DNA of 64,000 nt from positions 24,631-88,630 of the forward strand of contig CAVUBA010000005.1 in the NCBI GenBank assembly GCA_963739595.1. The letters are read 5' to 3'. Shown here one piece after another: positions 245 through 36,662 of the stretch. The DNA comes from an uncultured Thermoleophilia bacterium (lineage in GTDB: Bacteria > Actinomycetota > Thermoleophilia > UBA2241). The notes beneath the pieces are model-generated. The model was not told where the DNA came from. It worked only from the letters and a program-made list of their open reading frames with translations, and searched no databases. Made by a program: the position numbers and the translations under genes. Numbering within the stretch: the first letter of the stretch is position 1; every line of letters starts with the position of its first letter.

Positions 245-1192
245 GTGAAGGTAAGGCTCTTCTTCGCCACGGACGTCCATGGTTCGGAGGTCTGCTGGCG
301 TAAGTTCATCAACTCGGCCGCCCACTATGAGGCCGACGTCCTCATCCTCGGCGGCGACATGACCGGCAAGGCGATCGTGCCGATCACGCAGACGGCGCCC
401 GAGCACTGGCGCTATCACATGCTCGACATCACCCATGAGCTCGAGGGCGCCGACGAGCTCGCCAAGGGCGAGCGCCTCATCAAGGATCACGGCTACTATC
501 CCGTGACGCTGACGCCCGAGGAGCGCGACGAATACACGAGCGACGAGGACAAGCTGGAGGAGCTGTTCCACGAGCAGATGCGCAAGACCGTGGAGAGCTG
601 GGTCGAGTGGGCGGACGCGAAGCTCGAGAGCATGAACATCCAGTGCATCGTGTGCCCGGGCAACGACGACCGCTTCGACATCGACGACATCCTCAAGACT
701 TCCAAGCACATCATGGTCGGCGAGGGCAACGTCCTCGATCTTCCCGAAGGGTATCAGCTCGCCTCGAGCGGCTGGACCAACCTGACGCCCTGGGACACCC
801 CGCGCGAGGAGGACGAGCCCAAGCTCAAGCAGCGCATCCTCGAAATCGTCAAGCAGGCGACCGTGCCGCCCGAGCGCCTCGTGCTCGGCTTGCACGCCCC
901 GCCCTACGACACGCAGCTCGACGTAGCTCCGAAGATCGACTGGGACACGCTCACCGTCCAGGGTCAGGACTCGGCGCACGTCGGCTCCACCGCCGTACGG
1001 GAGGTGATCGAAGAGGTCCAGCCCATCCTTTCGCTGCACGGGCACATCCACGAGAGCCGCGCCGCGGTGCGCATCGGCCGCACGCTGGCCATCAACCCCG
1101 GCAGCTCCTACACCGAGGGCATGGTCGCGGGCTGTGTCGTCGACCTCGATGGCAAGAGCAAGCTGAAGCGCTACAGGCTGACGTCCGGGTGA
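245..1192 (+). CDS. calcineurin-like metallophosphoesterase
   Basis: Intact 315-aa ORF with GTG start preceded by GGGGGA. Carries the motif series DVHGS, GGDMTGK, GNDD and HGHIHE typical of metallophosphoesterases. Confidence 0.8.
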   Translation: MKVRLFFATDVHGSEVCWRKFINSAAHYEADVLILGGDMTGKAIVPITQTAPEHWRYHMLDITHELEGADELAKGERLIKDHGYYPVTLTPEERDEYTSDEDKLEELFHEQMRKTVESWVEWADAKLESMNIQCIVCPGNDDRFDIDDILKTSKHIMVGEGNVLDLPEGYQLASSGWTNLTPWDTPREEDEPKLKQRILEIVKQATVPPERLVLGLHAPPYDTQLDVAPKIDWDTLTVQGQDSAHVGSTAVREVIEEVQPILSLHGHIHESRAAVRIGRTLAINPGSSYTEGMVAGCVVDLDGKSKLKRYRLTSG

Positions 1193-1272: not shown

Positions 1273-2901
1273 ATGGCGACTGACGCCGGCAAGCCAGCCG
1301 AGCAGACTCTGTTCGTCCGCAAGGCGAGCGGTCTGGTCAAGGGCTGGTCGACGGGAGACGGGTTCAGGTACTCGTTCTTCTCGACCAACATCTTCCTGGG
1401 GATCTGGGGCTTTCTGTACGCCGTGTTCATCCCCGGCGGCAGCGTGTTCTGGTCCATCATCATCTGTACGCTGTTCGTGCTCCTCGAGGTCGTGGTCTAC
1501 GCGGGTCTGATCTCCGCGATGCCACGAGCAGGCGGCGACTACATCTGGCAGTCACGCGTGTTCCACAGCTCGGTCGGCTTCATCTTCGGGGCGACGGGCT
1601 GGTGGTTCATCCTGTGGCTCTGGATCCCGATCTACGCCGCCCTGTGCGTCAACTCGTTCATCAAGCCGATCCTGCGCATCGTCGGCGCCGGCGGCGCCGC
1701 CGACTGGCTCACGACCCAGTGGGGCATCTTCGTCGCCTCGCTGGCGACGATCGCCCTCGCGACCTACCTCGTCGCCGTCGGCATGAAGGCCTACGCCAAC
1801 TTCCAGAAGTGGGCCCTCTGGATCGGCCTCGCGGGTTGCGCCGTGGCCGCCATCCTGCTCCTCGTCACGACGAAGGCGCACTTCATCACCTCCTTCAACC
1901 GTGAGATGTTCGACCTCTACGGCGCCAAGGACGCCTACGCGACCACGATCAAGAACGCCGGCGAGGGCATGCCGTCGTCGATGTTCGCCGGCACCTTCAA
2001 GGACACGTTCAAGCTCCTCCCGGTCATGGCCTTCTGGCTTCTGTGGCCGGTGTGGGGCGCCACGCTGTACGGCGAAGTCCGCGGCGCCAAGGACTTCCGC
2101 AAGAACATCTACCAGATGGCCGGCGGCCTGCTCGCCGCCGTCGCCATCGTCATCGCGTTCCTGTTCCTCGTCACCAAGACGATGGGCTGGACCTTCTTCG
2201 AGGCCAGCGCCAACGGCTACATGGGCGCCCTGTACGCGTACATCGACCCCACGAAGCTCCCGGCCGGCAGCGACTACCTCTCGCCGACCGCCATGACCTC
2301 CTGGATCGTCAACAACAGCGTCTTCCAGGTCATCCTCATCGCCGTGATCTCCCTGATCGTGTTCGGCTGGTGGGGCACGGTGTTCCTGAGCTCGACGCGC
2401 ATGATCTTCGCGTCGGCGTTCGACCGCATCCTGCCCGAGAGCGTCGCCAAGGTGACGTCGGGCGGCGTGCCGGTCAACGCGCTGCTGCTCATGGCCATCC
2501 CGTCGGTCATCGTGTCCGCGTTCTACGCGTTCCAGCCGTCGTTCGTGCAGCTCACCTACGACGCCACCCTGGTGATCGCGGTCATGTTCTTCGTCACCGG
2601 CTGCGCGTTCGTGGCCATGCCGTTCCGCGCCAAGGCCATCTGGCAGAACTCGGCGCTGCCCAAGGGCCCGATCCTCCCGATCGTCGGGATCATCTACGTG
2701 CTCTTCATGGCGGGCATGCTGATCGCCTGGTTCTACGACAAGCTCAACGTCTACGGCGTCGGCTACAAGAACAAGAACTCCATGATCTTCATGGCGATCC
2801 TGTACGTGGCCGCCATCGTCATCTGGATCGCCGCGTGGGCGATCCGCAAGCGTCAGGGCATGGAGCTCGAGGCCGTCGCCAAGGAGATCCCGGTCGAGTA
2901 A
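1273..2901 (+). CDS. APC-superfamily (amino acid/polyamine/organocation) permease
   Basis: Intact 542-aa ORF that is hydrophobic throughout, with about 12 membrane-spanning stretches and APC-like sequence character. Ends TAA. Confidence 0.8.
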   Translation: MATDAGKPAEQTLFVRKASGLVKGWSTGDGFRYSFFSTNIFLGIWGFLYAVFIPGGSVFWSIIICTLFVLLEVVVYAGLISAMPRAGGDYIWQSRVFHSSVGFIFGATGWWFILWLWIPIYAALCVNSFIKPILRIVGAGGAADWLTTQWGIFVASLATIALATYLVAVGMKAYANFQKWALWIGLAGCAVAAILLLVTTKAHFITSFNREMFDLYGAKDAYATTIKNAGEGMPSSMFAGTFKDTFKLLPVMAFWLLWPVWGATLYGEVRGAKDFRKNIYQMAGGLLAAVAIVIAFLFLVTKTMGWTFFEASANGYMGALYAYIDPTKLPAGSDYLSPTAMTSWIVNNSVFQVILIAVISLIVFGWWGTVFLSSTRMIFASAFDRILPESVAKVTSGGVPVNALLLMAIPSVIVSAFYAFQPSFVQLTYDATLVIAVMFFVTGCAFVAMPFRAKAIWQNSALPKGPILPIVGIIYVLFMAGMLIAWFYDKLNVYGVGYKNKNSMIFMAILYVAAIVIWIAAWAIRKRQGMELEAVAKEIPVE

Positions 2902-2965: not shown

Positions 2966-3060
2966 CTCACGAAGACGAACACGCAGAGCAGACAAGCACA
3001 GCGAAACCCCCGGGACGGCCTGGGACTTCTGACAGCGACACAGTGGAGGGCCGTAGTGAT

Positions 3061-4468
3061 ATGACGAAGATCCTGACGAGAATGGGTGACAACTCGAACG
3101 TCGAGTTCACCAGGGACGAGCTCCGCCAGGAGTTCATCGACGGGTCGGAGTTCGCGGCCAAGAAGGCCAAGGTTCCGCCTCTGACCGAGAACGAGATCGA
3201 CTGGCTGGTCGACATGTTCGCTGCCCCGACGCGCATCTGGGGAGTGGAGCGTGGCCACGAGGTCGTCATGACCAAGGACGGGTGCGTCAACGCGCTGAAC
3301 TCGTCGCAGATGTCCAGCGGCGTGGTCGCGCCGGTCAACCGTGAGGTCGGCGTGCGTCTCTTCGAGTCGATGCTCGGCTTCGACTCCATGGAGATCTCGC
3401 ACAACGACTACTCGGTGAAGCCGCAGCGCTTCCTCAAGAAGCTCGAGATGCTCCATGTCGAGATCCTGCAGGAGACCACGATCTTCCCGCTGCTCTACGG
3501 GTTCATGCCGAACCTCGGGCCTGTACTTCAAGACCGACGGTCCCTTCGACAACCCCTACGACCTCATGCAGCAGGGCAAGATCAAGGAGTCGCAGGAGAC
3601 GCAGGAGGCGGCCGGCGCCAAGTGCCTCGAAGACTGCATCGAGATGAGCGACTGCATGGTCGAGATGGGCGCCGACGGCATCGACTACGACACCGTGGCG
3701 TCCACCGGCGACGGTGAGTTCGCTGCGGTACTCAAGAGCACCGAGCACGTCGCCAAGGAGACCGGCATGCCGGTCGAGATCGGCATGTCGACCGAGATGG
3801 TGACCGGCATCCACGGCACCATCGAGTACAACGGCAAGAGACTGGCCGGCATGTGGCCGCATCAGCAGCTGCAGGTGTGCGAGGAGGCCGGCGTCGCGAT
3901 CTTCGGCCCGGTCAGCACGACCAACACCAAGAAGTCCACGCCGTGGAACCTCGGCAAGGCGCTGGTGTTCGTCAAGTCGTGCACCGACATCGCCAAGGTG
4001 CCGATCCACCCGAACGTGGGCATGGGCGTCGGCGGCGTGCCGATGTTCGAGACCCCGGCGGTCGACGTCGTGACCCGCTGCAGCGCGGCCATGATCGAGA
4101 TCGGCAAGGCCGACGGGTTGTAGGTGGGTACTGGTGACCCCGCCGGCATGCACATGGCGCATCTGTTGGCCTCGTCCATGGGCGGCATCAGGGCAGCGGG
4201 AGATCTCGTTGCTCGTATGCAGCTCAGCAAGAAGATGAGGATCGACGAAGCCAAGAAGTACGTCGCCGACAAGCTCCACGTGACCCCGCGGGACCTCAGT
4301 GATCCCTACACGATGCGGCTTCTCAGGGAGGAGCTCGACATCGGGACGATCACGGGCGTCCCCGGCGTGGCCAAGGGCATCGCCGCCAAGGCGCGCATCG
4401 CCCAGCTGCTCGACATCGAGATCAACTGCGTCGAGCAGTTCAAGAACAAGACCGGACTGCACTACTGA
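3061..4468 (+). CDS. mtbB: dimethylamine:corrinoid methyltransferase MtbB homologue with in-frame TAG (putative pyrrolysine) and one 1-nt insertion
   Basis: ATG 3061 lies 10 nt after GGAGGG. Three ORF pieces (3043.., 3455..4123, 4124..4468) join into about 468 aa collinear with MtbB (...[24 protein letters not shown]..., ...[13 protein letters not shown]..., ...[23 protein letters not shown]...AAGDLVARM...). An extra C at about 3520 shifts the frame. TAG 4121-4123 is in frame. Confidence 0.85.
4121..4123 (+). other. in-frame amber codon, candidate pyrrolysine codon
   Basis: ORF 3455..4123 and ORF 4124..4468 share one frame and are separated only by this TAG. MtbB-like conservation continues for 114 codons after it. 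Confidence 0.8.
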
Positions 4469-4476
4469 GTCTGTGA

Positions 4477-4516
4477 GGGGGCCCGGCCGGCCGCGTCAGC
4501 GGCCGGCCGGGCCCCC
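4477..4516 (+). terminator. perfect 18-bp GC hairpin after mtbB
   Basis: GGGGGCCCGGCCGGCCGC (4477-4494), loop GTCA, then GCGGCCGGCCGGGCCCCC (4499-4516), followed by the T-containing run GTCTTCTTCC. Confidence 0.65.
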
Positions 4517-4537
4517 GTCTTCTTCCCGATCGCGAGG

Positions 4538-5209
4538 ATGGCCGTGGACCAGGACCGCCGAGAGCTCGTCATGTTCGACTTCGACGGCGTGATCGTCGAC
4601 TCGCTCGACGTGTTCAGCACCGCCTTCATCGACGCCTGCACCGCGGCCGGCGTCCCCGGCTTCGCCACGACGGACGACCTGCTGGCGGTCATGGAGGACA
4701 ACTTCTACGCCGGCATGCGCGCGCGGGGCGTGGACGACGCGCGCGTCGCGGACGTGCTGCACCGGCTCGGCGACGCGCTGATCCGCGCCCGCCACTGGCT
4801 CAAGCCGTTCCCGCTCGTGCCGCAGGTGATCGAGGATCTGGCCGACGCGCGCACCGTCGTCATCGTCACGTCGAGCCCGACCGAGGTCGTGGAGGGCTGG
4901 CTGCGCACGCACGAGGTCCACGGCGTGGCCGAGGTGGCCGGCGCCGAGACGGCGCGCAGCAAGGTCGACAAGATCGACGCGCTCCTGGCCCGGTTCCCCG
5001 GCCAGGAGGTCTACTGGTACGTCGGCGACACGGCCGGCGACATCCGCGAGGCGCGCGAGGCCGGCGTGACGCCGCTCGGCGTCTCCTGGGGCTGGCACGA
5101 GCCGGAGATGCTCATGGAGGCCGGCGCGGAGCGCGTCGCCTACTCGCCGGCCGAGCTGCTCACGATCATCGCGCCGGAGCTCGCCGGCGACTTCTTCGGC
5201 GCCGGCTGA
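4538..5209 (+). CDS. HAD-superfamily hydrolase (phosphoglycolate phosphatase-like)
   Basis: Intact 223-aa ORF with the N-terminal FDFDGVIVDS motif, a later VTSS motif and the YVGDTAGD motif. An alternative ATG start lies at 4571. Confidence 0.8.
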   Translation: MAVDQDRRELVMFDFDGVIVDSLDVFSTAFIDACTAAGVPGFATTDDLLAVMEDNFYAGMRARGVDDARVADVLHRLGDALIRARHWLKPFPLVPQVIEDLADARTVVIVTSSPTEVVEGWLRTHEVHGVAEVAGAETARSKVDKIDALLARFPGQEVYWYVGDTAGDIREAREAGVTPLGVSWGWHEPEMLMEAGAERVAYSPAELLTIIAPELAGDFFGAG

Positions 5210-8323: not shown

Positions 8324-10751
8324 CTAGCGCACGGTGACGATGGTGCGCGCCGTGCCGCCTTCGTGGTTGCCGCCGAGGTCGACGGCGCTGTAGGTCACCG
8401 TGAAGACGCCGCGCGACGCCGGTCTCCAGGTGACGCTCAGCGACTGGCCGATGGGCTGCCAGCCGGGATGGCCTGAGGCGACGCGGCGGCCCTTCGCGTC
8501 GGTCACGACGTAGCTCACGTCGACTTTGGCGCTGTAGGGATCGACGGCTTTGAAGCTGAGCTTGGTGGCGGCTCCCGCCGCTATGGCTTTGCCGGCCGGG
8601 GCGTACAGCCTGGGTCGGTAGAGGTCGACGACCAGGTTCTTGCCGGCGCTGCTCTCGCCGAGGGAGGAGACCGCGGTGACGGTGAACGTCGGCCGGCCGC
8701 TGGCGAGGTACTCGCCCGAGCCGGCCCGGCCGTCCCACGTCGCCGTGCGGGCTCCGGCTGCGAGCACGCCCAGGGCGAGCTTGCGCACGACCTTGTCGCC
8801 GTCGAAGACGCGCACCGTGACGGTGGCCTTGCGCGTCAGCGTGAATCCCAGCTTGGTGACGTCACGGACGCCGTCGCCGTTGGGGGAGATGGTGACCGGG
8901 GTGGCCACTGGGAAGCCGAGCGTCTTGTCGAGCTTGACCTTGACTCCCTGACGGGCGATGTTGCCCGCCTCGTCGCGGCGCTCCACGTCGAAGCGGTAGA
9001 GGCCCTCGGGGGCGGCGGCGAGGCCGCCGCCGGAGGTGATGCGGCCGTCCCAGGTGACGGAGTACGACCGCGTGTCCTGCGCCCGCCAGCCCTGGAGCCA
9101 GCGCACGACGTCGCCGGACGCGTCCAGCACGCCGACGCGGACGTCGCAGGCCTCGGCGGGACTGTAGGTGACCGCGGCCGTCTCGGCCTGGCCGTCGCCG
9201 TTGGGGCTGAAGGACGCCGGCGAGACGGCGGCGCCGGCGAGGCGGGGCGCCGTCGTGTCCACGGTGATCTGTGTCGAGGCGCTGGTCGCGTCGCCGCTCG
9301 CGGAGGTGGCGGTGAGCTCGGCCGTGTAGACGCCGTCGGGCACGTCCGAGCCGTTCGACGTCCCGCTTCCAGGTGACGGCGGCCGTGGCGCCCTGGCCGC
9401 TCCACGACGCCACGGTGTGCCCGCCGGCGTCCTTGAGCGCGAGGCGCCAGTCGGCGACGGCTGTGATGCCGACGGTCAGGTCGGTGGAGTCGAGCACGCC
9501 GTCTCCGTTGGGGCTGATGAGCGGGGCGCTCGCGTTCACCGTCGCTCCCAGGCTGGTGCCGATGCGTCTGGCGACGTCGGCACGGATCGCCGGCAGGAGC
9601 GCGTAGAAGGCGTCGCCGGGACACTCCGTGTAGTTGGCCTGTCGGTGACCGGCGACGACCGGCAGCGTCACCGTGGCGCCCTTGGTGTACTTGTCCGTGG
9701 CGCCGCAGACGAGCTGAGCCGTTCCGGACGGGTCGAGCCCGCAGATGGCGAGCTTCCAGGCCAGGAGGCGCTCGAGGGCCGCCACAGCCTCGGCGGGCGG
9801 CGCCTCGTCGATGAACGTGCCGATGACCGAGATCCCCGTGCTGCCGGTATTGAAGCCGTACACGTGGGCGCCGACGACGCCACGGGTGACGCCACCGTAC
9901 CGGCCCTCGTAGATGGTCCCGAAACGGTCGACGAGGAAGTTGTAGGCGATGTCGTTCCAGTGCAGGCTCTGCGTATGGTAGGCGTAGATGCCGCGCACCA
10001 GTGCGGGCGCGTCCGCGCGGGAGTAGAGGTTGCCGCTCGCGGTGTGGTGGATGATCGCCACCTTGACGGGAGCGTAGGAAGGCTCCGCCGACCGCAGGCT
10101 CTCGTCTGCGCCCCATTCCGAACGGGTGACGATGACCGGGGCCGACGAGGCGGCTGACGCCGGCGGCACGACGCTGATGCCGGCCACAGTGGCCGCCAGG
10201 CGACGCACGGCCCCGGTGAATCGCGCCGCGACGCTGCCATCTCCCGTGGGGTCGATGGCGACGACGTGGACGCCGGTGAGAGCGGCCGCTCCGCGGGAGC
10301 CGCCGCCGGCCGTCACCTGCACGTAGCGGGCGGTGCCGGTCCAGAGCGGGTCGGTGTACGCCGTGGCCGTGCTGCCCTCTCCGGCGATCTCGAGCGGAGC
10401 CTCGAGCCACGGGCCCCAGGCGGTGCCGTCGATGCTGGTGCGCAGACTGAGAGTAACGCCGCCGCGGGCGGGCGCGTCGCAGGTGACGCCGGCCATGGTG
10501 AAGCTCTCGCCGGCGTCCAGGGTTACGGGGGCCTCGGCGTCGCCGACCGCCGCGCGCGCGACCGCGAGCCGGCCGTCGCCGGGGACGCGCAGCGTCTGCA
10601 GGCGCACAGACGGCGCGCGCATCCAGGCGGCGGCTGCGCCGCTCGCGCGCGGCGCGGTCCAGACCGCGAGGAGCAGCGCGGCGAGGGCGACCATGCCCGT
10701 CGCGAGGGCGCGCGTGAGGCCGGGGTGCCTTGCCGTGAACGAGCGTGTCAT
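8324..10751 (-). CDS. secreted N-acetylmuramoyl-L-alanine amidase (PGRP/amidase_2 type) with C-terminal FlgD-Ig-like repeats (frame break near 9385)
   Basis: ATG 10751 followed by a signal-like segment (MVALAALLLAVWTAPRASG). The amidase core reads IIHHTAS...WNDIAYNFLVDRFGTIYEGR...GHRQANYTECPG. Several SPNGDG-containing Ig-like modules follow. The two ORF pieces (8862..11123 and 8324..9343) join across one indel. Confidence 0.8.
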
Positions 10752-10950
10752 GTGGACGCCTGGTCTCCCGCCGGTCGGGTCGCTGCTCGGGCAACGCCGG
10801 CGCTGGAGTGACCTTGCGCCGGAGAAGGAGAGCATGCCTTGCTTCAACGGGGTCGGCCGCCCCCCTCGCTTCCTTGAGCAAGAAGTGGGGTCGGGCAGGC
10901 GGCTCGCCCTGCCTGCGGCGCGAAAGCAGCCGTGGCGGGCCAGTCGCGCG

Positions 10951-11893: not shown

Positions 11894-13208
11894 TCACCGG
11901 TCCTCCGGCTCCGGGTCGCGCCGATGGTGGCGCAGCTGGTCCAACCGGCGCCTCGAGGCGAACACGCAGTCGGTCTTGACGGCCTCGGCGGCGGCTACGT
12001 CCCTGGCGAGGACCGCGCACGACGGCGCGCCGCAGAGCCCACAGTCGTAGCCGGGCAGCGAAGCCGCGATTCGTTCGGCCTCCTTGTGGCGCCGCACCCG
12101 TTCGCGCAGATCGCCGACGACGACGCGTGCTCGCGTGGCAGGAAGGGGCGTTCGATGCCGAAGTCGGCCGCGGGATAGCGGCGGGCCACCTCGGCCTCCG
12201 TCAGCGGGTCGGTGTCCGGAAGCTCGGCCATCAGCAGTTGCAGCTTCGCCTGGGACACGTACACGTTGTCCACGGTGAGGTTGCCGTTGCAGCAGCCGCC
12301 CCAGCAGGCGTTCGCCTCCAGGAAGTCGATGTCGCGCAGCTTGCCCTTCTCGATGTCGTCGAACACGCGGATCACGTTGGGCAATCCGGTGACGGCCAGG
12401 TAGCGGTGATGCTTGAGAAGCTCGGCGAGTGGCCGGCGCGTGGACCAGCGCAGCATGATGGATGAGCGGACCGGGTGCTGAGCCGCGATGGGAATCGCGC
12501 CCTCCGCGGCCTCGCGGGCCGCGCTCAGCACGCTGTTGTACAGCTGGGGGATGCCGATGGCGCCGTCCAGGCAACTGCTGCCACCCTCGGCCGGCTGGAG
12601 GATCGACACGGTCCGCGCCTGGCACGGCGTGACGTAGATCGCGGCGATCTGCTCGGGATCGAGGCCGAGCTCTTCCGCATAGCGGCGCTTGACTTCGCGC
12701 CCTGCGACCTCGCGCGGCGGGCGGATGCGGATCGCCTGTTCGAGCATGCGCGGGTAGGAGACCTGCATGAGGCGCACCACGACCGGCGCAGGCGATGGAG
12801 ATCACCGGCCGCGGTCCGTCCCAGTGGTCCATGTAGTCGACGATGGCCTGCGCCACGAGTCGCGTGTCCACGCCGTAGTCCCACACCGCGTCGAAACCGA
12901 CGGCCAGCAGACCCTGGGCGATGTCCTCGGGCTTCACGTCCAGTGGGAACTGGCCGTACAGCACGGGAGACGGGATCGCGACCCTGAACGCGTATCCCTC
13001 GAAGTCCTCGAGCGTGCGCGTCGTAGGCGCGAACACTCCCCGCGTGCAGGCGGTGAGGCAGGAGCCGCAGTCGATGCACAGCTCCCGCTTGACCACGCGC
13101 CTTGCCATTCGTCACGCGGATCGCTTCGGTGGGGCAGACTCGCATGCAGGCGAGGCAGCCGTCGCAGCGCGACGCGTCCATGGTGAACCCGTGCGCGTAC
13201 TCAACCAT
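11894..13208 (-). pseudogene. [FeFe]-hydrogenase-like Fe-S protein (large-subunit C-terminal domain type), about 3 frame breaks
   Basis: N-terminal 4Fe-4S ferredoxin motifs (CDGCLACMRVCP, CIDCGSCLTAC), a hydrogenase-like core (...VTPCQAR..., ...LEANACWGGCCNG...) and a C-terminal CGLCGAPSC motif. Pieces lie in ORFs 12525..13208, 11894..13108 and 11995..12780, switching near 13105, 12780 and 12115. Confidence 0.65.
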
Positions 13209-13638
13209 CGCTGTCCAACCTGATTCGGCTCACGACGACGGTACCCCCGTTCACGTCGGAGCGGAGTTCGAAGCTGTCCGAGTTGCGCCGGATGTTCGGC
13301 AGGCCCATGCCGAAGCCGAACCCCATCTCGCGCATCTCGTCAGTGGCGGTGGACCAGCCCTCTTGCATGGCCAGGCCGATGTCGGGGATGCCCGGGCCGC
13401 GGTCGTCCATCTCGATGGTGATGTCCTCGTCGGTGATCGTGAGCGTGAGCTTGCCCTCGTCGGCGTACATCACCACGTTCATCTCGGCCTCGAACACGAC
13501 GACGACGGCGCGGCGGACGAGCGCCGGGTCGAGCTCGAGGCTCGTGAGCAGCGACTTCACCTCGGTGGACGTCTCGCCGCCCTTGTCGTAGTCGCGACCG
13601 TGGACCCGGAAGCAGCAGCCGAGCAGCTCTTCAGCCAC
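13201..13638 (-). CDS. GHKL/HATPase_c-type ATP-binding protein (anti-sigma-factor-kinase-like)
   Basis: GTG at 13638. Contains ...DDRGPGIPD... and ...GFGFGMGLPNI... motifs typical of histidine-kinase-like ATPases. This is the usual partner of DRTGG proteins in hydrogenase-type clusters. Confidence 0.65.
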   Translation of the reverse strand: MAEELLGCCFRVHGRDYDKGGETSTEVKSLLTSLELDPALVRRAVVVVFEAEMNVVMYADEGKLTLTITDEDITIEMDDRGPGIPDIGLAMQEGWSTATDEMREMGFGFGMGLPNIRRNSDSFELRSDVNGGTVVVSRIRLDSDG

Positions 13639-13639
13639 G

Positions 13640-13985
13640 CTACATCGCCCCCTTGAGGCCGGCCTGGTAGAGGATGCCACAGCAGTCGAACATCCCCAGG
13701 TCGGTCGCCGAGCACGGGGATCCCGCTGTCGTGGGCGAGCTGGAGGACGCGCTCCTGGGGGCGCTTGCCGCGTACGTAGACGATCGCGTGGACGTCGGCT
13801 ACGACGGCGGTGCGCACGGACTGGATGTTGGTGAGTCCGGTGAGCATGAGCGCGTGCGGGCAGTGGAACGCGAGGATCTCGCTCATGCCGTCAGAGGCGA
13901 CGACGGCCTCGACCTCCACCTCCGCGCCGTCGCCGCTGTCGAGCAGCTCGCAGCCGAGGGCGGCGGCCACCTCGTCGAGCCTCAT
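13640..13985 (-). CDS. DRTGG domain protein (frame break near 13710)
   Basis: ...ALMLTGLTNIQSVRTAVVADVHAIVYVRGKRP... After one indel the frame continues TDLGMFDCCGILYQAGLKGAM to TAG at 13640-13642. Confidence 0.6.
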
Positions 13986-13991
13986 GGCCGC

Positions 13992-16256
<2,265 letters not shown>

Positions 16257-16273
<17 letters not shown>

Positions 16274-18779
16274 GGTCCTCCAGTCGGGAGCGTACCGGAC
16301 CGTCTGCGGCCGTCACACGCACACGCAGCGGCCTGGCCGGCAAGCGCGCGAGCGCGTCGAGGCGCTCACCTGCGGCCAACCCGCCCCAGGCCGCTACGCG
16401 GACCGCATAGACCGCTCCTCGGGGGCAGGCTGGATCGGGCCGCACGGGCGCGACCACGAGGTCGCCGCCCAGATGGATGCCCACGTCGCCGTCCGGCCCG
16501 ATGCCCAGCCGGTCGAGGTCGCGGGGGTGCATGCGCACGCCGCGTTCCAGGTCGAGTTCAGCGAGACCCTCGACGACGGCGCTCAGGTCCGTGCCACGAT
16601 GGCGGAACGCCGCGCGCTCGGGGACCAGCGTGAAGCGGCCCCTGCCGGGAGCCGCCGTCTCAGCCGGTCGGCGTCGTCGTGGCAGCGGTGTCATGCGCCG
16701 TCGCGCCCGGTCCCCCCCGCGCGGAAAGGCGGGCGCCTCGGCGCGGATCGCGCGCCGCACCGCCTCGGCGTCCGCGTAGCTGAGGTCCGCGCGGCCGAGG
16801 CGATGCGCGATCCCGGACAGGATCGCCCAGTCCGGCAGCGGACCATCGTGCCCGGCGCTTGCCGCGGAGTGCTCGACCGGGCGCAGTTCCTGCACGCGGC
16901 CTTCAAGGTTCGTCAAGGTGCCTCCGTCCTCGGCGAACGAGGCGGCCGGCAGGAACGCGTCGACCGGGAACGGCGGCAGGTACAGGTCCTGGGCGATCAG
17001 GTAGTCGCAGGGGGGGCGTTCGGCGAACGGCGCCTCGCCGATGAGGTAGAGCACGGCGGGTCGTCGGCCGGCCCGGAGGCTCGCCAGGTCGAACGGCCTC
17101 CGCCGCGCTGCGGGCTCCCAGCGGGGGCCCGGCAGCACGCCGGCCAGCGCCCCGAGCTCGAGCGCGCCGCGCGCGTTGGCGGCGTGCGTCAGCGGCACGA
17201 TCGTGATGGCTGAGTCCCTTGCCAGGAGCTCGAGCTCGGCCAGGAGTCCATCGGCGCCGGCGCAGTCGAAGGTGCGCGGCCCGAGCACGATCGCCGGAGC
17301 CTGCGCCCGCCGGAGTTCGGAGGCCGCCGCGACGACGGCGTCGTCGCGGCCGTCAAGGGGCCGGCGCGAGTCCCGCCGGCGAGCGCGTCCGCAGCAGGCG
17401 CGCGAGCGCTGCGGCCTCCTCACCGGGCGGTGGGCGCAAGTCATGGTCGGCCACTCGGGACAGGGTCGTCTCGCGAGCGTCGACGGTCACCAGCCGCGCC
17501 CCCCGGCGCAAGGCGCGGCGCACCTGCACGCCTGCGACGGAGAACGCGTAGCGTGGGTCGAGGCCCGCGACGATGGCGAGGTCGCAGGTGGCGACGCCCT
17601 CGATCGACACGGGCAGGGCGAAGAGTCGCGACCAGGCTCCCGGCCCGCCCGGCAGGTCGTCGCGTACGGTCGAGTCGACGCCGCGCGCCGAGAGCCCCTC
17701 GCGAGCCAGCCGCTGCGCGGCGAAGAGCGCCTCGTTGGGCAGGTCGCCGCCCACGAGCACGAGGACGTCCTCCGGGCGCGCGCTCATCAGCTGCGCGCTC
17801 ACCGCGGCGAGCGCCTCGTCCCAGTCGACGATGCGGTCGTATCGCCCCTTGCGCAGCATCGGGTCGGCGCGCCCTCGACGGATGCTGCGTCGTCTCGGGC
17901 AGGCAGAACCGGCCGCGCAGGCACAGCTGTCCGTCGTTGAGCTCCGGGTCACGGGCGCCGCTGGACGGAGGAGAGCCGGCCCCCTGCATGCGCCAGTTCG
18001 ACTTGACAGCCGAGGGGGCAGAGAGGGCAGGTCGAGACGGCGACGCCGTCGGGCGCGCCGTCCCACTTGGACACCTTGTCGGCGAGCGCGCCGGTGGGGC
18101 AGACGGACACGCAGGCCCCGCAGAACTCGCACCCGGCCGCCTCGTGCGACCTGCCGAAGGCGGGGCCGATGAGGGTCCGCGGCCCCCGGTCGATGAAGGC
18201 GAGCACGCCGGCGCCTCGCACCTCAGCGCACATGCGCACGCAGCGGCCGCAGAGGATGCAGAGGTTGTAGTCGCGGTCGTAGAACGGCTCGTCGTGTTCG
18301 GGCTCGAGTCCCCGGTAGGCGACCGGGTGACCGGCCCACTCGACGCCGACCGACTCCGCCACCTGCTGCAATTCGCAGGCGCCGTCGCGCGGACAGGTCC
18401 GGCAGCCGGTCGCGACGCCGGCCTTGCGGATGGTCTGCTGCGTGCGCCGGCAGTCGTCCTGTTCGCCGCACACGAGGCAACTCGAGGGGTGCTGGGAGAG
18501 GAGGAGCCCGAGGATCTGACGGCGTTGCTCGCGCAACCCTGCCGTGTCCGTGATGACGCGCATGCCCTCGGTCACGGCCGTGCTGCAGGCGAGCGGGTAC
18601 GGCTTCGTCCCTTCGATCTCGACGGCGCAGAGCCGGCAGCCGCCGAACGGTGTCAGCTCCGGGTGCGAGCAGAGCGCCGGCACGCCGACGCCGGCAGCTT
18701 CCGCCGCACGCAGCACGGTGGTGCCGGCGGGCACCACCACGGCGTGGCGGTCGATCTCCAGGCGCACGTCAGGCGACAT
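16257..18779 (-). pseudogene. NuoG / formate-dehydrogenase-alpha-like Fe-S and molybdopterin-oxidoreductase-family subunit, about 3 frame breaks
   Basis: The N-terminus has a 2Fe-2S motif ([19 protein letters not shown]) and 4Fe-4S motifs (CILCGRCVRMC, CEFCGACVSVCP, CPLCPLGC). It is followed by NDGQLCLRGRF and molybdopterin-oxidoreductase-like sequence in ORFs 17441..17989, 17353..18132 and 16257..17444. Confidence 0.7.
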
Positions 18780-20700
18780 GGTCGGCTCCCGAGGCGATCA
18801 CGATGGCGTCGCCGGCGATCGCGTCGAACCGGCAGACCTCGTAGCAGGAGCGGCACTTGATGCATTTCTCCGGATCGAGGTTGTGGGCCTCGGCGCGCGG
18901 GCCGGTGATGGCGCCCGTCGGGCAGACCTGGACGCAGCGCTGACAACCGGTGCACCTGCCCGGGATGATGCGGTAGGTGACGAGATCGCGGCAGACGGCT
19001 GCCCGGCAGCGGCGGTCGACGATGTGCTCGACGAACTCGCTGCGGAAGTACTTGAGCGCGGTCAGCACCGGGTTGGGGGCCGTCTGGCCCAGCCCGCACA
19101 GCGAGCTGCGTTTCACCACGCGAGCGAGCGTCTCCAGCTTGTCGAGGTCGGCGAGCTCGGCCTTGCCCCCGCAGATGGCGTCGAGGATCTCGACGAGGTG
19201 GCCGGTGCCGATGCGGCAGGGCGCGCACTTGCCGCACGACTCGTCCTGGGTGAAGCGGAGGAAGTAGCGTGCCGTGTCGACGATACAGGTGTCCTGGTCG
19301 AGGACGATGAGGCCGCCGGAGCCGAGGATGGAGCCGGCGGCCGCCAGGTTCTCGTAGTCCAGCGGGGTGTCGAGGAACTCCTCGCCGAGGCAGCCGCCGG
19401 AGGGCCCCCCCGTCTGCACCGCCTTGAAGCCCTTGGCGACGCCGCCGCCGATGTCCTCGATGACGCGGCGGAGCGTCGTGCCGAACGGCACCTCGATCAG
19501 CCCGGTCCTGCGGACCTTGCCGACGAGGCTGAACGTCTTGGTCCCCCGCGAGGTCTCGGTGCCGCGGGTCGCGTACTGCTCCGCGCCGCCGTTCACGATC
19601 ACCGGGAGGGTCGCGAGGGTCTCGACGTTGTCGATGATCGTCGGCATCCCCCAGAGACCGGACTCGGCGGGGAAGGGCGGCCGCGTACGCGGCATGCCGC
19701 GCCGCCCCTCCAGGCTGGCGATCAGCGCCGTCTCCTCGCCGCAGACGAAGGCGCCGGCGCCCTGCTTGACGGCGAGGTCGAAGGAGAAGCCGCTGCCGAG
19801 GACTGTCTTCGCCAAGGAGGCCGAGGCGCCTCATCGCGACGATCGCCGTGCGCAGGCGGCGGATCGCCAGCGGGTACTCGGCGCGGATGTAGATGAATCC
19901 CTGCTCCGCGCCGATCGCGTAGGCGGCGATCAGCATGCCCTCGAGGACGGCGTGCGGATCGCCCTCGATGAGCGAGCGGTTCATGAAGGCGCCCGGATCG
20001 CCCTCATCGGCGTTGCAGATGAGGTACCGCCGGGCGCCCTCCGCCTCGCGGCAGGCCTGCCACTTCCGCCAGGTGGGGAAGCCGCGCCGCCGCGACCGCG
20101 AAGCCCGGCGATCTTGACGAGGTCGACTACGTCACCCGGCGACAGCGCGAGGCAGCGCTCAAAGGCGAGGTAGCCGCCGCGCGCCAGGTAGTGGTCCACG
20201 ACCTCGGGGTCGACGAGGCCGCAGTCGCGAAGCACGAGACGGGTCTGCGGCGCCAGCATCGGGTGGTCGGCGAAGCGGGCGACCGTGGCCGGCGGCTCGG
20301 CGCCGTCCTCGCCCGGCTCGTCCCGGCCCCCGAGGGCGTCACGGTCGAGGGAGCCGACAAAGTGACTCGACGGCGTCTCGCCGGCCAGGAGCGCGTCGAG
20401 CGTCTTCACGGCCAGCTCGGGAGTCATGTTCGCGTAGCTCAGCCGGGGACGCCCCGGCAGCTGCACGTCCAGCAGCGGCTCGAGGTAGCAGGGGCCGATG
20501 CAGCCGACGGTGACCACGCGGGCCTTGACGTCGCGGGCGGCCAGGTGGGCGCGTGCGGCGCTGAGCACCTCGCCGGCGCCGGCCGCCAGACCACAGGAGC
20601 CGAGTCCTACGTACACCACCGGCGTCCGCCCCGCGTGCAGGGCTTGCCAGCGCCGTCCGGCGAGGCGGCGGCGGCGCTCAAGAGTGCGCGTCGCGGGCAT
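18769..20700 (-). pseudogene. NuoF-like NADH-binding flavoprotein subunit (HydB/BfuB-like), about 2 frame breaks
   Basis: [16 protein letters not shown] (one G missing near 20095), ...[25 protein letters not shown]..., ...[19 protein letters not shown]..., ...[10 protein letters not shown]..., and C-terminal 2x4Fe-4S motifs ([23 protein letters not shown]). The second break is near 19812. Confidence 0.8.
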
Positions 20701-21139
20701 CCAGGAGCTCCTGCAGCTTGAGGACGCTCATCTGGCCGTAGATGGCCTCGTCCAGCGTGAACACGGGCGCGAGGGCACAGCACCCGAGACAGGCCACTCG
20801 CTCCAGGTCGTACTCGCCGTCGGGCGTCGTCTCGCCGGCACCTATGCCGAGCCGCCGTTCGAGCGTCTCCATCATCTGCACGCCGCCCTGGACGTGGCAG
20901 GCGGTGCCGAGGCAGAGGCGCAGCCTGTGGCGACCCGGTGGCGTGAAGCGGAACTGCGCGTAGAAGGTCGCCACGCCGAAGACCTCGTTCTCCGTGAGCC
21001 GGAGGTCATCGGCGATGCGACCAACCGCCTCCGGCGACAGATAGCCGAGGGTCGCCTGGGCGCGCTGCAGCGCCGGCACGAGATCGGACCGGTCGCGGCG
21101 CACGCCTCTCGGGGTGCCCGGCCGGAGATCGGCCGCCAC
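20678..21139 (-). CDS. NuoE-like 2Fe-2S thioredoxin-like subunit (HydC/BfuC-like)
   Basis: Intact 153-aa ORF: ...ALQRAQATLGYLS..., ...FYAQFRF...CLGTACHV..., ...VACLGCCALAP... Confidence 0.85.
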   Translation of the reverse strand: MAADLRPGTPRGVRRDRSDLVPALQRAQATLGYLSPEAVGRIADDLRLTENEVFGVATFYAQFRFTPPGRHRLRLCLGTACHVQGGVQMMETLERRLGIGAGETTPDGEYDLERVACLGCCALAPVFTLDEAIYGQMSVLKLQELLDARDAHS

Positions 21140-21151
21140 CGGGACCTCCCG

Positions 21152-21481
21152 TCACCTCATGCCGAGGTCGAAGAGCTTGAGGGCATAGGCCCAGGTGTCG
21201 TCGCCGGTGCAGAACAGCGGGATGTTCACCCGTCCGGCCAGGTCGAGCACGTCGTCCGCGGGGCGCTTGCCGTGACCGAACACGATCATCCCCGCGTCGA
21301 CGACGTTGGCGGCCGCGATGAGGTTCTTGTGTGTCTGCAGCGTGAGCAGCAGGCATCCCGCCGGGGCGCCGGTGATGATGTCCGAGGCCATGTCCGAGAC
21401 GTACACCCCGGGGATGTCCCCGTCCTCCCAGGCGCCCAGCGCCTTGAGTCCGGTCTTCTCGACGATCTCGGCCATGTTCAC
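21152..21481 (-). CDS. DRTGG domain protein
   Basis: Intact 109-aa ORF: ...CLLLTLQTHKNLIAAANVVDAGMIVFGHGKRP... It is a paralogue of the gene at 13640-13985. Confidence 0.7.
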   Translation of the reverse strand: MNMAEIVEKTGLKALGAWEDGDIPGVYVSDMASDIITGAPAGCLLLTLQTHKNLIAAANVVDAGMIVFGHGKRPADDVLDLAGRVNIPLFCTGDDTWAYALKLFDLGMR

Positions 21482-21518
21482 GGCTTCTCCCCCCTCGTGA
21501 GGTCTCGTGGGCGCCCGT

Positions 21519-22059
21519 TCACAACTCGATCAGGCCGGCGTCGCTGATCACGATCCCGCGGCAGCAGTCCGCGTCGCTGCGCATGCGGCACGGCACGACG
21601 ACGATCCGTCCTGCGTCCCGGGCGCCGGCCCTGGTTGAAGTACTCCTCAAGCGCGGCGACCCCGTCGTCGCTGACGCAGCGCCCCGACTCGTGGGTCGAA
21701 TCGCCGCACAACGCCACGTAGATGGAGGCCTGGTCACCCAGCCGGAGCGCGAGCCCTCCGACCTGGCACTCGGGATCGGCGCAGAGGGACATCATCAGGC
21801 CGGTCATGGCACTCAGGTCGGCCGCCCGGCCGCACGTGTCGCAGCGCAGGCCGAACTGGACCGCTTGATCCCCGGACAGGTACTCCCAGATGTGCGGGCC
21901 GTCGCGGTACTCGTCGATGGGCGCGACGGGCTCGGTGGAGAAGAATGAGCTGCGGGCACCGCAGTGGTAGCAGCCCTCGACGACGAGGAATCCGCCGTGT
22001 ACGTCGGTCATCGACCAGTAGTGGTCGCAGGTGCTCTCGGATCGCGGCCTCTGATCCAC
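21519..22059 (-). CDS. Cys-rich hypothetical protein, first gene of the redox cluster (frame break near 21600)
   Basis: Zinc-ribbon-like pairs (CDHYW..CYHCG, CDTCG). The C-terminus continues in the frame of ORF 21519..21737 (...VVVPCRMRSDADCCRGIVISDAGLIEL). Confidence 0.45.
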
Positions 22060-26094: not shown

Positions 26095-27688
26095 ATGTCC
26101 GCCTGGTCGCCACTCCAGTACCGCGTGTACCGGATGCTGTGGATCGCCCTCCTCGCGTCCAACATCGGCACCTGGATGCAGGCCGTGGGCGCCGCCTGGA
26201 TGATGGTCCAGCTGAACGCCTCGCCGGCGATCGTGGCGCTGGTGCAGACGGCGACCTACCTGCCGGTCGTCTTCGTCGGCGTCCTGGCCGGCGCCGCCGC
26301 CGACATGGTCGAACGGCGGCGCCTGCTCCTGATCACCCAGGGGTTCATGTTCGCGGCGGCCGGCGGGCTGGCCGTGTTCGCGGCGCTGGACGCCGTCACC
26401 CCGCTGCTGCTGCTCGGCTTCACGTTCGCGCTGGGGCTGGGGGCGACGTTCAACTTCCCGGCGTGGCAGGCGATCCAGCCCGAGCTGGTGCCCGCGCACG
26501 AGCTCAAGCAGGCGGTGACGCTGGGCGGCGCCAACATCAACCTGGGCCGGGCGATCGGCCCGGCGATCGGCGGCCTGCTCATCGCCGCCGCCGGCCCCTG
26601 GCTCGTGTTCGCGCTGAACGCCGCGTCGTTCGCCTTCGTGCTCGTCGTGCTCTGGCGCTGGAAGCGACCGGTCGAGGAGGTCGTCGGACCGCCCGAACGC
26701 TTCGCCGGGGCGGTCCGCGCCGGCGTCCGCTACGCCATGTTCTCGCACATCCTGCGCGGTGTGCTGGTCCGCTCCTTCGCGTTCGGCGTGGCCAGCGCCG
26801 GCCTGATGTCGCTGCTGCCCGTCTACGCCAGCCAGGTGCTCGGCTGGGGCTCGGGCGGCCTCGGCCTGCTGTTCGCGGCCATGGGCGCCGGGGCGGTCGC
26901 GACCGCCGCGGTGATCCCCCGGGTGCGCGAGCACCTCAGCGCCGACTGGGTGTTCGCGGTCGGCAGCGTGCTCGTGGCGGCGGCGCTGGTCGCGCTGGCG
27001 CTCGTGCACGCGCCGGCGCTCGCGGTGCTCGCCACGTTCGTGGCCGGGGTCGGCTGGCTGTTCTGCCTCTCGACGCTCAATGTCGCCTCCCAGGAGGTGC
27101 TGCCGGGCTGGGTGCGCGCCCGCGGGCTCGCTCTGTACCTGACGGCGATCTCCGCCGGCATCGCCCTCGGCAGCGCCCTGTGGGGCAAGCTGGCGACGTC
27201 GACCAGCGTGCCGGCCGCCTACGCGTGGAGCGCGCTCGTGATCGTCGTCACCGTCGCGCTGGCGTGGCACTGGCGGTTCGACCGCATCGCCGAGGTGGAC
27301 CTGCGGCCGGCGCCGATGGCGGCGCCGGAGGCGCGGCTGGTGGAGGACGAAGACGCCGACAGCCCGGCGCTGGTCGTCGTCGCCTACCAGATCCGGCCGG
27401 AGGTCGAGGACGAGTTCCTGCGCGCCCTTCGCCTGGTGGGCAGGGTGCGCCGGCGCACCGGCGCCACCGACTGGTCGGTGTACCGCGACGCGGACAAGCC
27501 CTACCGCTTCGTCGAGACGTTCGTGCTGCCGAGCTGGGACGAGCACCTGCGCCAGCACCAGCGGCGCACGGTCACCGACTTCGAGCTCCAGCAGGAACTG
27601 CCACCAGTTCCTTCAGGACGGGACGGAGCCGACGGCGAAGCACTACGTCGCGCCGCCCGAGCCGTCGATGCGGCTCTGGCTGCGCTGA
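26095..27688 (+). CDS. MFS transporter (EntS/MFS_3-like) with a C-terminal ABM-like domain (frame break near 27600)
   Basis: About 12 hydrophobic helices followed by a soluble tail (...VVVAYQIRPEVEDEFLRAL...YRFVETFVLPSWDEHLRQH...). The last 28 or so codons (HQFLQDGTEPTAKHYVAPPEPSMRLWLR) are in a shifted frame ending TGA at 27686-27688. Confidence 0.75.
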
Positions 27689-30409: not shown

Positions 30410-30547
30410 GGGAGTGCCGGCCGGGTCTGCGTGCTTCGCCCGGCCGGCCACCGACGCTAGCAGGCCGGCGCGTGCGCTTCGAGGGTGACGAGAGTGGACG
30501 TTCGCGGCGGCGGGTGACGCGAGCGGCCGGCGAGAAACCGCCGCCGG

Positions 30548-36283: not shown

Positions 36284-36662
36284 TCAGTCGGGCTTGAGGA
36301 GGCCGCGGCGGGCGTAGACCTCCGCGGCCTCACGCACGAGCGCGGCGCACAGTGGCGCGTCCGCTGCCTCGAGGCGGGCGGCGATGGTCTCGAGGCCGGC
36401 GGCCGTCGACCTGCCCGGCCGGAGCGCCTCGTAGATCGCCAGTAGCTCGTCGTCGGCCGGCGCGGTCAGCTCCGCCGCGCGCCTCAGATTCTCGCCGAGC
36501 TGAGGGTTGCCGTGTGCCTCGGCGACCTCGGCCTGGTAGCGCAGCGTGTCCGGATGGACGCGCAGGTCGGCGGGGGAGAGGTCGCCGCGCACGGCCGCCT
36601 CCAGCGTGAGCTCCTCGATCGGCCGGCCGCTCAGGGCACGGGTGGAGAACGCTGCCGCTCAT
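36284..36662 (-). CDS. diol/glycerol dehydratase small (gamma) subunit, PduE/PddC-like (probable frame break near 36648)
   Basis: ...DLRVHPDTLRYQAEVAEAHGNPQLGENLRRAAELTA..DDELLAIYEALRPGRST...REAAEVYARRGLL matches the small subunit. Homology (FSTRALSGRPIEELTLEAAV) extends upstream of the GTG at 36592 toward ATG 36662, which overlaps the upstream stop (ATGA). Confidence 0.75.

Follow-up and report, generated by a model that had tools for sequence, protein, structure and literature searches.

The use of pyrrolysine (Pyl) is regarded as rare, most users being methanogens or belonging to a part of the Firmicutes and Deltaproteobacteria. The closest described counterparts of the gene considered here are the dimethylamine:corrinoid methyltransferases MtbB1-3 of Methanosarcina barkeri and M. 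acetivorans, whose genes carry a single in-frame UAG; the residue at this position in characterised MtbB we take, as established knowledge, to be the catalytic Pyl. Bacteria with a split pyrrolysyl-tRNA synthetase (Desulfitobacterium hafniense, Acetohalobium arabaticum, Bilophila and marine Deltaproteobacteria) encode it in separate pylSc and pylSn genes, together with pylT(CUA) and pylBCD, and still use UAG as a common stop codon. The MttB superfamily also includes enzymes that do without Pyl, such as the glycine betaine methyltransferase MtgB. Here we describe an mtbB gene at positions 3061 to 4468 of a 64,000-nucleotide (nt) stretch of DNA (the window; GC content 71.3%) from an uncultured high-GC soil or peat bacterium of the Thermoleophilia (Actinomycetota, about 71% GC). 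From its sequence and that of its relatives we infer that UAG codon 354 is read as Pyl, giving an enzyme of 468 amino acids (aa) that would act on dimethylamine, and we put the probability of this reading at roughly 0.8.

In the window as given, the frame of mtbB is broken at two places. The open reading frame (ORF) 3455..4123 terminates at the TAG at 4121-4123, and ORF 4124..4468 shares its frame and terminates at the TGA at 4466-4468; both can be read directly in the sequence, as the first-pass annotation of this DNA had stated. That annotation also proposed a joined product of about 468 aa starting at 3061. The length stands once one base is removed, which gives 468 aa and makes the TAG codon 354, but the start does not share the frame of the rest: ATG 3061 is in frame 1 whereas 3455..4468 is in frame 2, the 1408 nt of 3061..4468 are not divisible by 3, and a +1 frameshift near 3520 had been overlooked. 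Residues 1-165 of MtbB from an orthologous locus, L001, match 3061-3555 in frame 1 (tblastn). The locus is composed as follows.

3045..3049, + strand: Shine-Dalgarno-like GGAGG, read in the sequence, 11 nt 5′ of the mtbB ATG.
3061..3519, + strand: mtbB segment 1, codons 1-153, ending FMPNLG, frame 1 (translation).
3517..3521, + strand: frameshift site GGGCC, with one surplus base (alignments to relatives).
3521..4120, + strand: mtbB segment 2, codons 154-353, LYFKTDGPF...EIGKADGL, frame 2 (translation, tblastn).
4121..4123, + strand: in-frame TAG, codon 354, predicted pyrrolysine codon (RF02509 alignment; 60/60 loci).
4124..4468, + strand: mtbB segment 3, codons 355-468, ending KTGLHY, plus the TGA stop (PF09505 and TIGR02368 aligned to the profile ends; dN/dS).
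4121..4220, + strand: Rfam PYLIS_2 (RF02509, pyrrolysine insertion sequence of mtbB), 60.3 bits (gathering score 36), E = 5.1e-12, much of the score deriving from conserved coding sequence.
4193..4212, + strand: hairpin GCAGCGGG-AGAT-CTCGTTGC, helix 2 of PYLIS_2, 72 nt 3′ of the UAG (pairing, covariation).
4477..4526, + strand: intrinsic-terminator-like site, an 18-bp all-GC stem followed by GTCTTCTTCC (T-rich tail), 9 nt past the TGA.

Profile scores were computed on the frameshift-corrected product. It matched PF09505 (Dimeth_Pyl) with 589.9 bits (cutoff 25; E = 3.8e-177), residues 5-463 aligning to positions 4-463 of the 463 in the profile, and scored 480 bits (cutoff 369.1) against the equivalog TIGR02368 ([dimethylamine--corrinoid protein] Co-methyltransferase). 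The start-to-stop collinearity with MtbB that had been proposed from the letters was borne out by these two matches, which identify the locus as a real dimethylamine:corrinoid methyltransferase gene, full-length after correction, and as a full-length collinear homologue of the Methanosarcina MtbB1-3. In a collection of 5.8 billion proteins, 1260 matched MtbB at E ≤ 1e-10. Among the top 120 matches, most were 343-356 aa long and covered about 75% of the query, which means that gene callers had truncated this same gene at the TAG; the full-length relatives among these 120 end at the TAG column. A sequence search of the PDB with MtbB returned no related solved structure.

When each GTDB species was represented by one genome, a scan yielded 61 orthologous loci with 75-99% amino-acid identity, none of them from the window's own genome, and codon 354 could be evaluated in 60 of them. 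All 60 kept TAG, with no case of TAA, TGA or a sense codon; the frame then stays open for 112-121 codons, and the 10-residue peptide after the TAG is always present. In codon alignments, the median pairwise ratio of nonsynonymous to synonymous substitution rates (dN/dS) was 0.169 after the TAG (61 sequences) versus 0.238 before it (56 sequences). As a control, the post-TAG region read in the +1 frame gave 1.08 in an earlier, cruder run that assumed ungapped alignment and included misaligned pairs. Between the window and L001, five of the six differences after the TAG are synonymous, and the GC content at third codon positions downstream of the TAG is 0.87. These values indicate that the tail is translated and under purifying selection, in agreement with the earlier proposal that the region after the TAG is still decoded. 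From the TAG up to the TGA, the + strand contains no terminator-like site. The conserved TAG, the low dN/dS and the position of the terminator together argue that the tail is translated and that the stop must specifically be UAG. The earlier placement of this TAG at the Pyl position also held: positions 1-3 (UAG) of the RF02509 model align to 4121-4123, by this model the column of the single UAG in Methanosarcina MtbB1-3, within a shared DG(L/I)-O-(V/I)G-GDP motif (O, Pyl), and it is at this column that the full-length relatives stop.

The conserved TAG might instead mark a boundary within a split gene that makes no use of Pyl, translation stopping at the UAG (353 aa) and restarting at the adjacent GUG (114 aa), with the two chains then assembling. 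The codon 3′ of the TAG is indeed GTG, a possible start, in 55 of the 60 loci, and UAG is a normal stop in this genome. However, in the other five loci it is GTC, GTT or GTA, none of them a start codon, no Shine-Dalgarno-like sequence lies ahead of the GTG, and the interrupting codon is TAG in every case, and not TAA or TGA, although TGA is the stop used most often here. Established knowledge of characterised MtbB, with its catalytic Pyl at this very position, also speaks against a split gene, as does the complete pylTSBCD set found in the same assemblies (see below); we know of no other use for these genes. We consider a split gene very unlikely, and favour decoding of the UAG as Pyl.

The mRNA around the UAG has conserved features on both sides. 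Downstream, it matches PYLIS_2, as in Methanosarcina MtbB, and the second helix of that element is conserved: across 55 distinct Thermoleophilia mtbB sequences 99.5% of the helix 2 cells were paired, as compared with 29-44% in slid controls. Two of the helix 2 pairs covary at synonymous third positions, the first being CG in 27 sequences, AU in 15, UA in 8 and UG in 3, and the second GC in 19, CG in 18, UG in 12 and UA in 5. In contrast to Methanosarcina, helix 1 is not conserved in Thermoleophilia; it was 65.8% paired in the same 55 sequences, and 3 of its 11 pairs never form. By pairing and covariation, 4193-4212 is a real conserved hairpin, with a putative role in recoding. Directly 5′ of the UAG the codon is TTG in the window and in 57 of the 60 loci, and TTA in the other three; UUG and UUA are both rare Leu codons at 71% GC. 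The resulting UUG-UAG-GUG context is conserved in the window (4118-4126) and in L002-L062. The hairpin and this codon context may help Pyl decoding.

Genes for a complete Pyl system were identified in the lineage by their profile matches. A first search for pyrrolysyl-tRNA synthetase (PylRS) with the M. mazei catalytic domain gave only Methanosarcina sequences. When the PylRS catalytic domain was run exhaustively with HMMER against 1.84 billion representatives, Ala/Arg-rich PylSc representatives were recovered. One of them, P0310, has 2878 relatives at E ≤ 1e-20, including proteins named by NCBI ‘pyrrolysine--tRNA(Pyl) ligase large subunit [Thermoleophilia bacterium]’ and ‘[Actinobacteria bacterium]’. 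On one contig of 71.7% GC (L069; GCA_012514235.1, JAAZAR010000071.1) we found pylSc, a TIGR02370 corrinoid protein gene, pylSn, tRNA-Pyl(cta), pylD, pylC and pylB, with the following support.

L069 pylSc: TIGR02367, 319.7 bits (cutoff 178).
L069 pylSn: TIGR03912, 126.6 bits (cutoff 51).
L069 tRNA-Pyl: anticodon cta (ARAGORN).
L069 pylD: TIGR03911, 212 bits (cutoff 150).
L069 pylC: TIGR03909, 336.9 bits (cutoff 248).
L069 pylB: TIGR03910, 444.4 bits (cutoff 348).

Three further loci (L066-L068) share the layout pylSc ... pylSn ... pylT-pylD-pylC-pylB, and the pylT consensus of the lineage is GGGGGGTCGATCGGAAGGATCAGCGTGGGCTCTAAACCCACGTAGGCGGGTGTGACTCCCGCACTCCCCGCCA. The assembly that holds L069 also holds an mtbB locus (L013, JAAZAR010000112.1) whose product is 95% identical to the MtbB of the window. 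Likewise, assembly JBAZPK01 has pylSc on JBAZPK010000196.1 (L065) and mtbB on JBAZPK010000098.1 (L047), and on a 1.14-Mb contig (L063) pylSc adjoins a second TAG-split mtbB, with a PYLIS_2 match of 75.5 bits. The separate pylSc and pylSn genes, pylT(CUA) and pylBCD of these relatives resemble the bacterial split-synthetase systems. They differ in belonging to the phylum Actinomycetota, in an overlap of pylSc with an amidase gene and in the distance of more than 10 kb between mtbB and the pyl genes in the 61 loci. In the examined loci among L063-L069 (around 8919-10861), pylSc and the cell-wall amidase gene upstream of it (Amidase_3, PG_binding_1) overlap by 4 nt, and pylSc lies 1.5-4 kb from pylT-pylD-pylC-pylB on the opposite strand; this arrangement is not known to have been described for a pyl locus. 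A home-made pattern search for pylT, based on the anticodon loop and acceptor stem, returned nothing, including in the pylSc loci that it covered; ARAGORN found pylT in further pyl-cluster loci.

These genes bear on whether some near-cognate or other suppressor tRNA could read through the UAG and insert a canonical amino acid. Such generic read-through would be in keeping with a window that has no pyl genes, and the hairpin and codon context could stimulate it. Yet the lineage encodes a dedicated tRNA(CUA), PylSc/PylSn and PylBCD, above equivalog cutoffs, and methylamine methyltransferases are the canonical clients of Pyl. We therefore regard insertion of a canonical amino acid as extremely improbable, and Pyl as the residue most probably encoded.

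Several observations weigh against Pyl decoding at this locus. No pylT was found in the window, where ARAGORN reported 0 tRNAs, Rfam no tRNA at E < 1, and blastn with the lineage's own pylT no match; since ARAGORN does detect the lineage pylT in L066, L068 and L069, this negative is meaningful. No pylS, pylB, pylC or pylD was detected in the window either, by Pfam scans of its ORFs, by tblastn with M. mazei PylRS (a query validated against PDB 2Q7E, 611.7 bits) or by tblastn with the PylSc, PylSn, PylB, PylC and PylD proteins of the lineage itself, and neither pylT nor any other pyl gene occurs in any of the 61 loci, those of the window's closest relatives L024 and L002 included, within the 10 kb visible on either side of the mtbB match. 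The 64-kb window also yielded no corrinoid protein gene. That mtbB and the pyl genes of JAAZAR01 and JBAZPK01 belong together depends on metagenomic binning. UAG is a frequent stop, ending 15 of the 51 confident genes of the window (29%), so that efficient read-through is not guaranteed, and the mtbB gene is frameshifted as given, which leaves some probability of a true pseudogene in this strain.

At least eight relatives terminate mtbB itself with TAG (L016, L022, L032, L038, L040, L045, L053 and L061). This, together with the 15 of 51 window genes, rules out genome-wide reassignment of UAG. Because UAG is still an ordinary stop, Pyl decoding has to compete with termination or be conditional, as it does in other Pyl bacteria; the likeness to the split-synthetase systems would likewise lead one to expect a competitive or regulated mode. 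The earlier suggestion that the organism may decode UAG as Pyl is supported by the relatives, in whose assemblies pylTSBCD occurs; for the window's own genome, the pyl genes are predicted by analogy with those relatives.

At the frameshift, the window reads CTCGGGCCTG, L001 reads CTCGGCCTG (GGCC) and L024 reads CTCGGGCTG (GGGC), so that the MtbB frame of the window as given is not uninterrupted but shifts by +1 at 3517-3521. Programmed +1 frameshifting near 3520 was ruled out, as the frame is intact there in nearly all orthologues; a break inside the N-terminal mtbB ORF occurs in only one other orthologous locus (L056, an MFD-series metagenome-assembled genome (MAG)). The extra base is present in the sequence as given, and, if real, would make this mtbB a strain-specific pseudogene whose enzyme is no longer made, the gene being functional in relatives. 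However, tblastn with L001 proteins revealed that the frame is broken at least seven times within some 11 kb, always in conserved genes: at 3517-3521 and at about 7040, 9366, 12132, 12787, 13100 and 13700, affecting mtbB, a 404-aa protein, an amidase, an Fe-hydrogenase (three times) and a DRTGG-domain protein. The count is based on frame changes in tblastn, low-gap-penalty blastn being too noisy for this purpose. The at least six breaks outside mtbB fit sequencing error rather than decay of mtbB. Furthermore, apart from the extra base, which falls in a G/C run, mtbB is 98% identical to that of L001 at the nucleotide level, with mostly synonymous differences, and in comparisons with its closest relatives hardly any amino-acid change is seen after the TAG, dN being about 0 versus L002 and 0.008 versus L007. 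A pseudogene thus appears unlikely. Since at least seven such breaks occur in about 11 kb, the frameshift near 3520 is most likely an assembly error, and residual indel error in an error-prone assembly is the simplest reading of the breaks as a whole; uncorrected long reads are our guess at their source. Further split genes, NuoF-like and UvrD-like, were noted at 18772-20700 and 27646-30451, and ORF-based readings of the window should allow for single-base frame breaks.

The orthologous loci come almost entirely from MAGs titled Thermoleophilia, Actinomycetes or Actinomycetota, consistent with the high-GC actinomycetotal host that had been suggested earlier. Many of these MAGs belong to the MFD series; two from Stordalen Mire, bog_752 and palsa_645, are represented as well. 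The best nucleotide match to the window is L024 (90.8% over 14 kb). In a comparison of window positions 3040-4480 with L001 9980-11420, mtbB was 98% identical and its flanks 77-85%; this excess of mtbB over the flanks would reflect either unusually strong synonymous constraint or recent exchange within the clade. The gene order metallophosphoesterase, APC permease, mtbB, HAD hydrolase, PPK2 is conserved, and the window contains the following neighbours.

245..1192, + strand: metallophosphoesterase, conserved neighbour (46 loci).
1273..2901, + strand: APC-family permease, directly upstream of mtbB (PF13520, 76 bits; same family beside mtbB in 50 loci).
4538..5209, + strand: HAD-family hydrolase, conserved downstream neighbour (37 loci).

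The APC permease is a candidate methylamine importer. Further upstream, past the left edge of the window, the relatives have a DeoR regulator, an APH-family kinase, an MttB-family gene, a corrinoid protein, an MtmB-family gene and a choline/ethanolamine kinase. The B12-binding corrinoid protein gene lies about 5.5 kb upstream of mtbB in syntenic relatives, and its counterpart would fall past the window's left edge. The window differs from the Methanosarcina systems in its host and in these surroundings: the host is bacterial, with 71% GC, no mtbC stands directly beside mtbB in the window, and the APC permease, metallophosphoesterase, HAD hydrolase and choline/ethanolamine kinase are not known as neighbours of archaeal mtbB. 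The MtmB-family gene (L001 4549-5931, and 33 other loci, for example L048 4013-6046) matches PF05369 with 233 bits over profile positions 1-450 in one stretch and has no NCBIfam match at E ≤ 1e-5. Its lack of an in-frame stop suggests a homologue of monomethylamine methyltransferase that does without Pyl. The gene sits 4-8 kb upstream of mtbB, outside the window, with the corrinoid protein gene, the non-Pyl MttB-family gene and both kinase genes.

On the proposed mechanism, the mRNA would run from ATG 3061 through the TGA at 4466-4468 and end at the strong terminator at 4477-4516. UAG354 would be read by tRNA-Pyl(CUA), charged through the split PylSc/PylSn, with PylBCD, all encoded elsewhere in the genome as in the relatives; Pyl insertion would compete with termination and might be conditional. 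The permease would import the amine. By analogy with Methanosarcina MtbB, Pyl would be the catalytic residue, binding dimethylamine for transfer of a methyl group to a Co(I) corrinoid protein, and a second methyltransferase would hand the methyl on. In other bacteria the methyl acceptor is tetrahydrofolate.

A broader proposal joins three propositions: that a Thermoleophilia clade of at least 61 species, from soil, peat and digesters, uses Pyl; that UAG recoding in it, in genomes where some 29% of genes end with UAG, depends on two local signals, the UUG or UUA directly 5′ of the UAG and the hairpin 72 nt downstream, which shows compensatory synonymous changes and is shared with archaeal mtbB; and that the gene cluster may encode a demethylation route. 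The cluster would comprise the DeoR regulator, APH-family kinase, non-Pyl MttB, corrinoid protein, non-Pyl MtmB, choline/ethanolamine kinase, phosphoesterase, permease, Pyl-type MtbB and HAD hydrolase, and the route may be a stepwise demethylation of choline- or ethanolamine-derived methylamines, which is not described in the literature that we found. That all three hold at once is doubtful, and we offer the combination as speculation.

Elsewhere in the window, a gene at 57288-58769 (+ strand) encodes a non-Pyl member of the MttB superfamily (493 aa, without an in-frame stop, and itself ending in TAG). It matches PF06253 with 210 bits and TIGR02369 with 307.9 bits, under the cutoff of 525 for the trimethylamine enzyme. 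This gene, and the other one upstream of mtbB in relatives, resemble MtgB-type enzymes, and differ from mtbB in the lack of an in-frame stop. A weak, sub-threshold CRISPR-DR20 match inside it (57743-57778, − strand; 26.8 bits versus 42, E = 0.22) is almost certainly due to chance. At 36284-39154 (− strand) are genes of the diol/glycerol dehydratase family: an 831-aa ORF fuses the large and medium subunits (PF02286, 774 bits, and PF02288), and the small subunit gene (PF02287) lies downstream. We take this family to be B12-dependent, and it may represent a second corrinoid-dependent function near the methyltransferases. A cluster at 11894-22059 (− strand) contains [FeFe]-hydrogenase, NuoE-, NuoF- and NuoG-like genes, a GltD-like oxidoreductase, DRTGG and HATPase, and points to an anaerobic, possibly electron-bifurcating lifestyle of the host.

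The first-pass annotation had considered a Pyl user of this kind to be an unusual or undescribed lineage. Unusual it is, but not undescribed. PylRS was listed in ‘two Actinobacteria’ (Guo et al. 2022, PMC9630628), a statement repeated in PMC11764691. Actinobacteriota MAGs expressing Pyl-type mtbB and mttB have been reported by Ellenbogen et al. (2023, PMC10805028), who deduced Pyl from genes truncated at the amber codon; the main text of that paper contains no pylS or pylB term. Because the Stordalen MAGs bog_752 and palsa_645 are among our 61 loci, the clade of the window is very probably the one with the expressed ‘Pyl-encoding mtbB’ of PMC10805028. Neither PMC9630628 nor PMC10805028 documents a pylTSBCD cluster alongside mtbB, a clade as broad as 61 species-level genomes, or the conserved hairpin, and a literature search for Thermoleophilia together with pyrrolysine matched a single serpentine-soil paper with one mention of each word. 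Pyl in Actinobacteria has thus been briefly reported and is annotated at NCBI, and the clade looks larger than the papers found describe. The present analysis adds its breadth of 61 species-level genomes, the occurrence of mtbB(UAG) and complete pylTSBCD in the same assemblies, the covarying hairpin and the codon context.

The gene belongs to a widespread uncultured actinobacterial clade of soils, peat and digesters, in which a Pyl-type mtbB is kept under strong selection and a full pyl set is present. These results affect gene calling and annotation of these MAGs, in which mtbB is routinely broken into two genes, and the 55 natural sequences with a covarying hairpin speak to the unsettled question of PYLIS-like elements outside mtmB. 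The PylRS/tRNA-Pyl pairs of these high-GC organisms might serve genetic-code expansion. The finding is also relevant to the question of which wetland organisms consume methylamines, from which methane can be formed.

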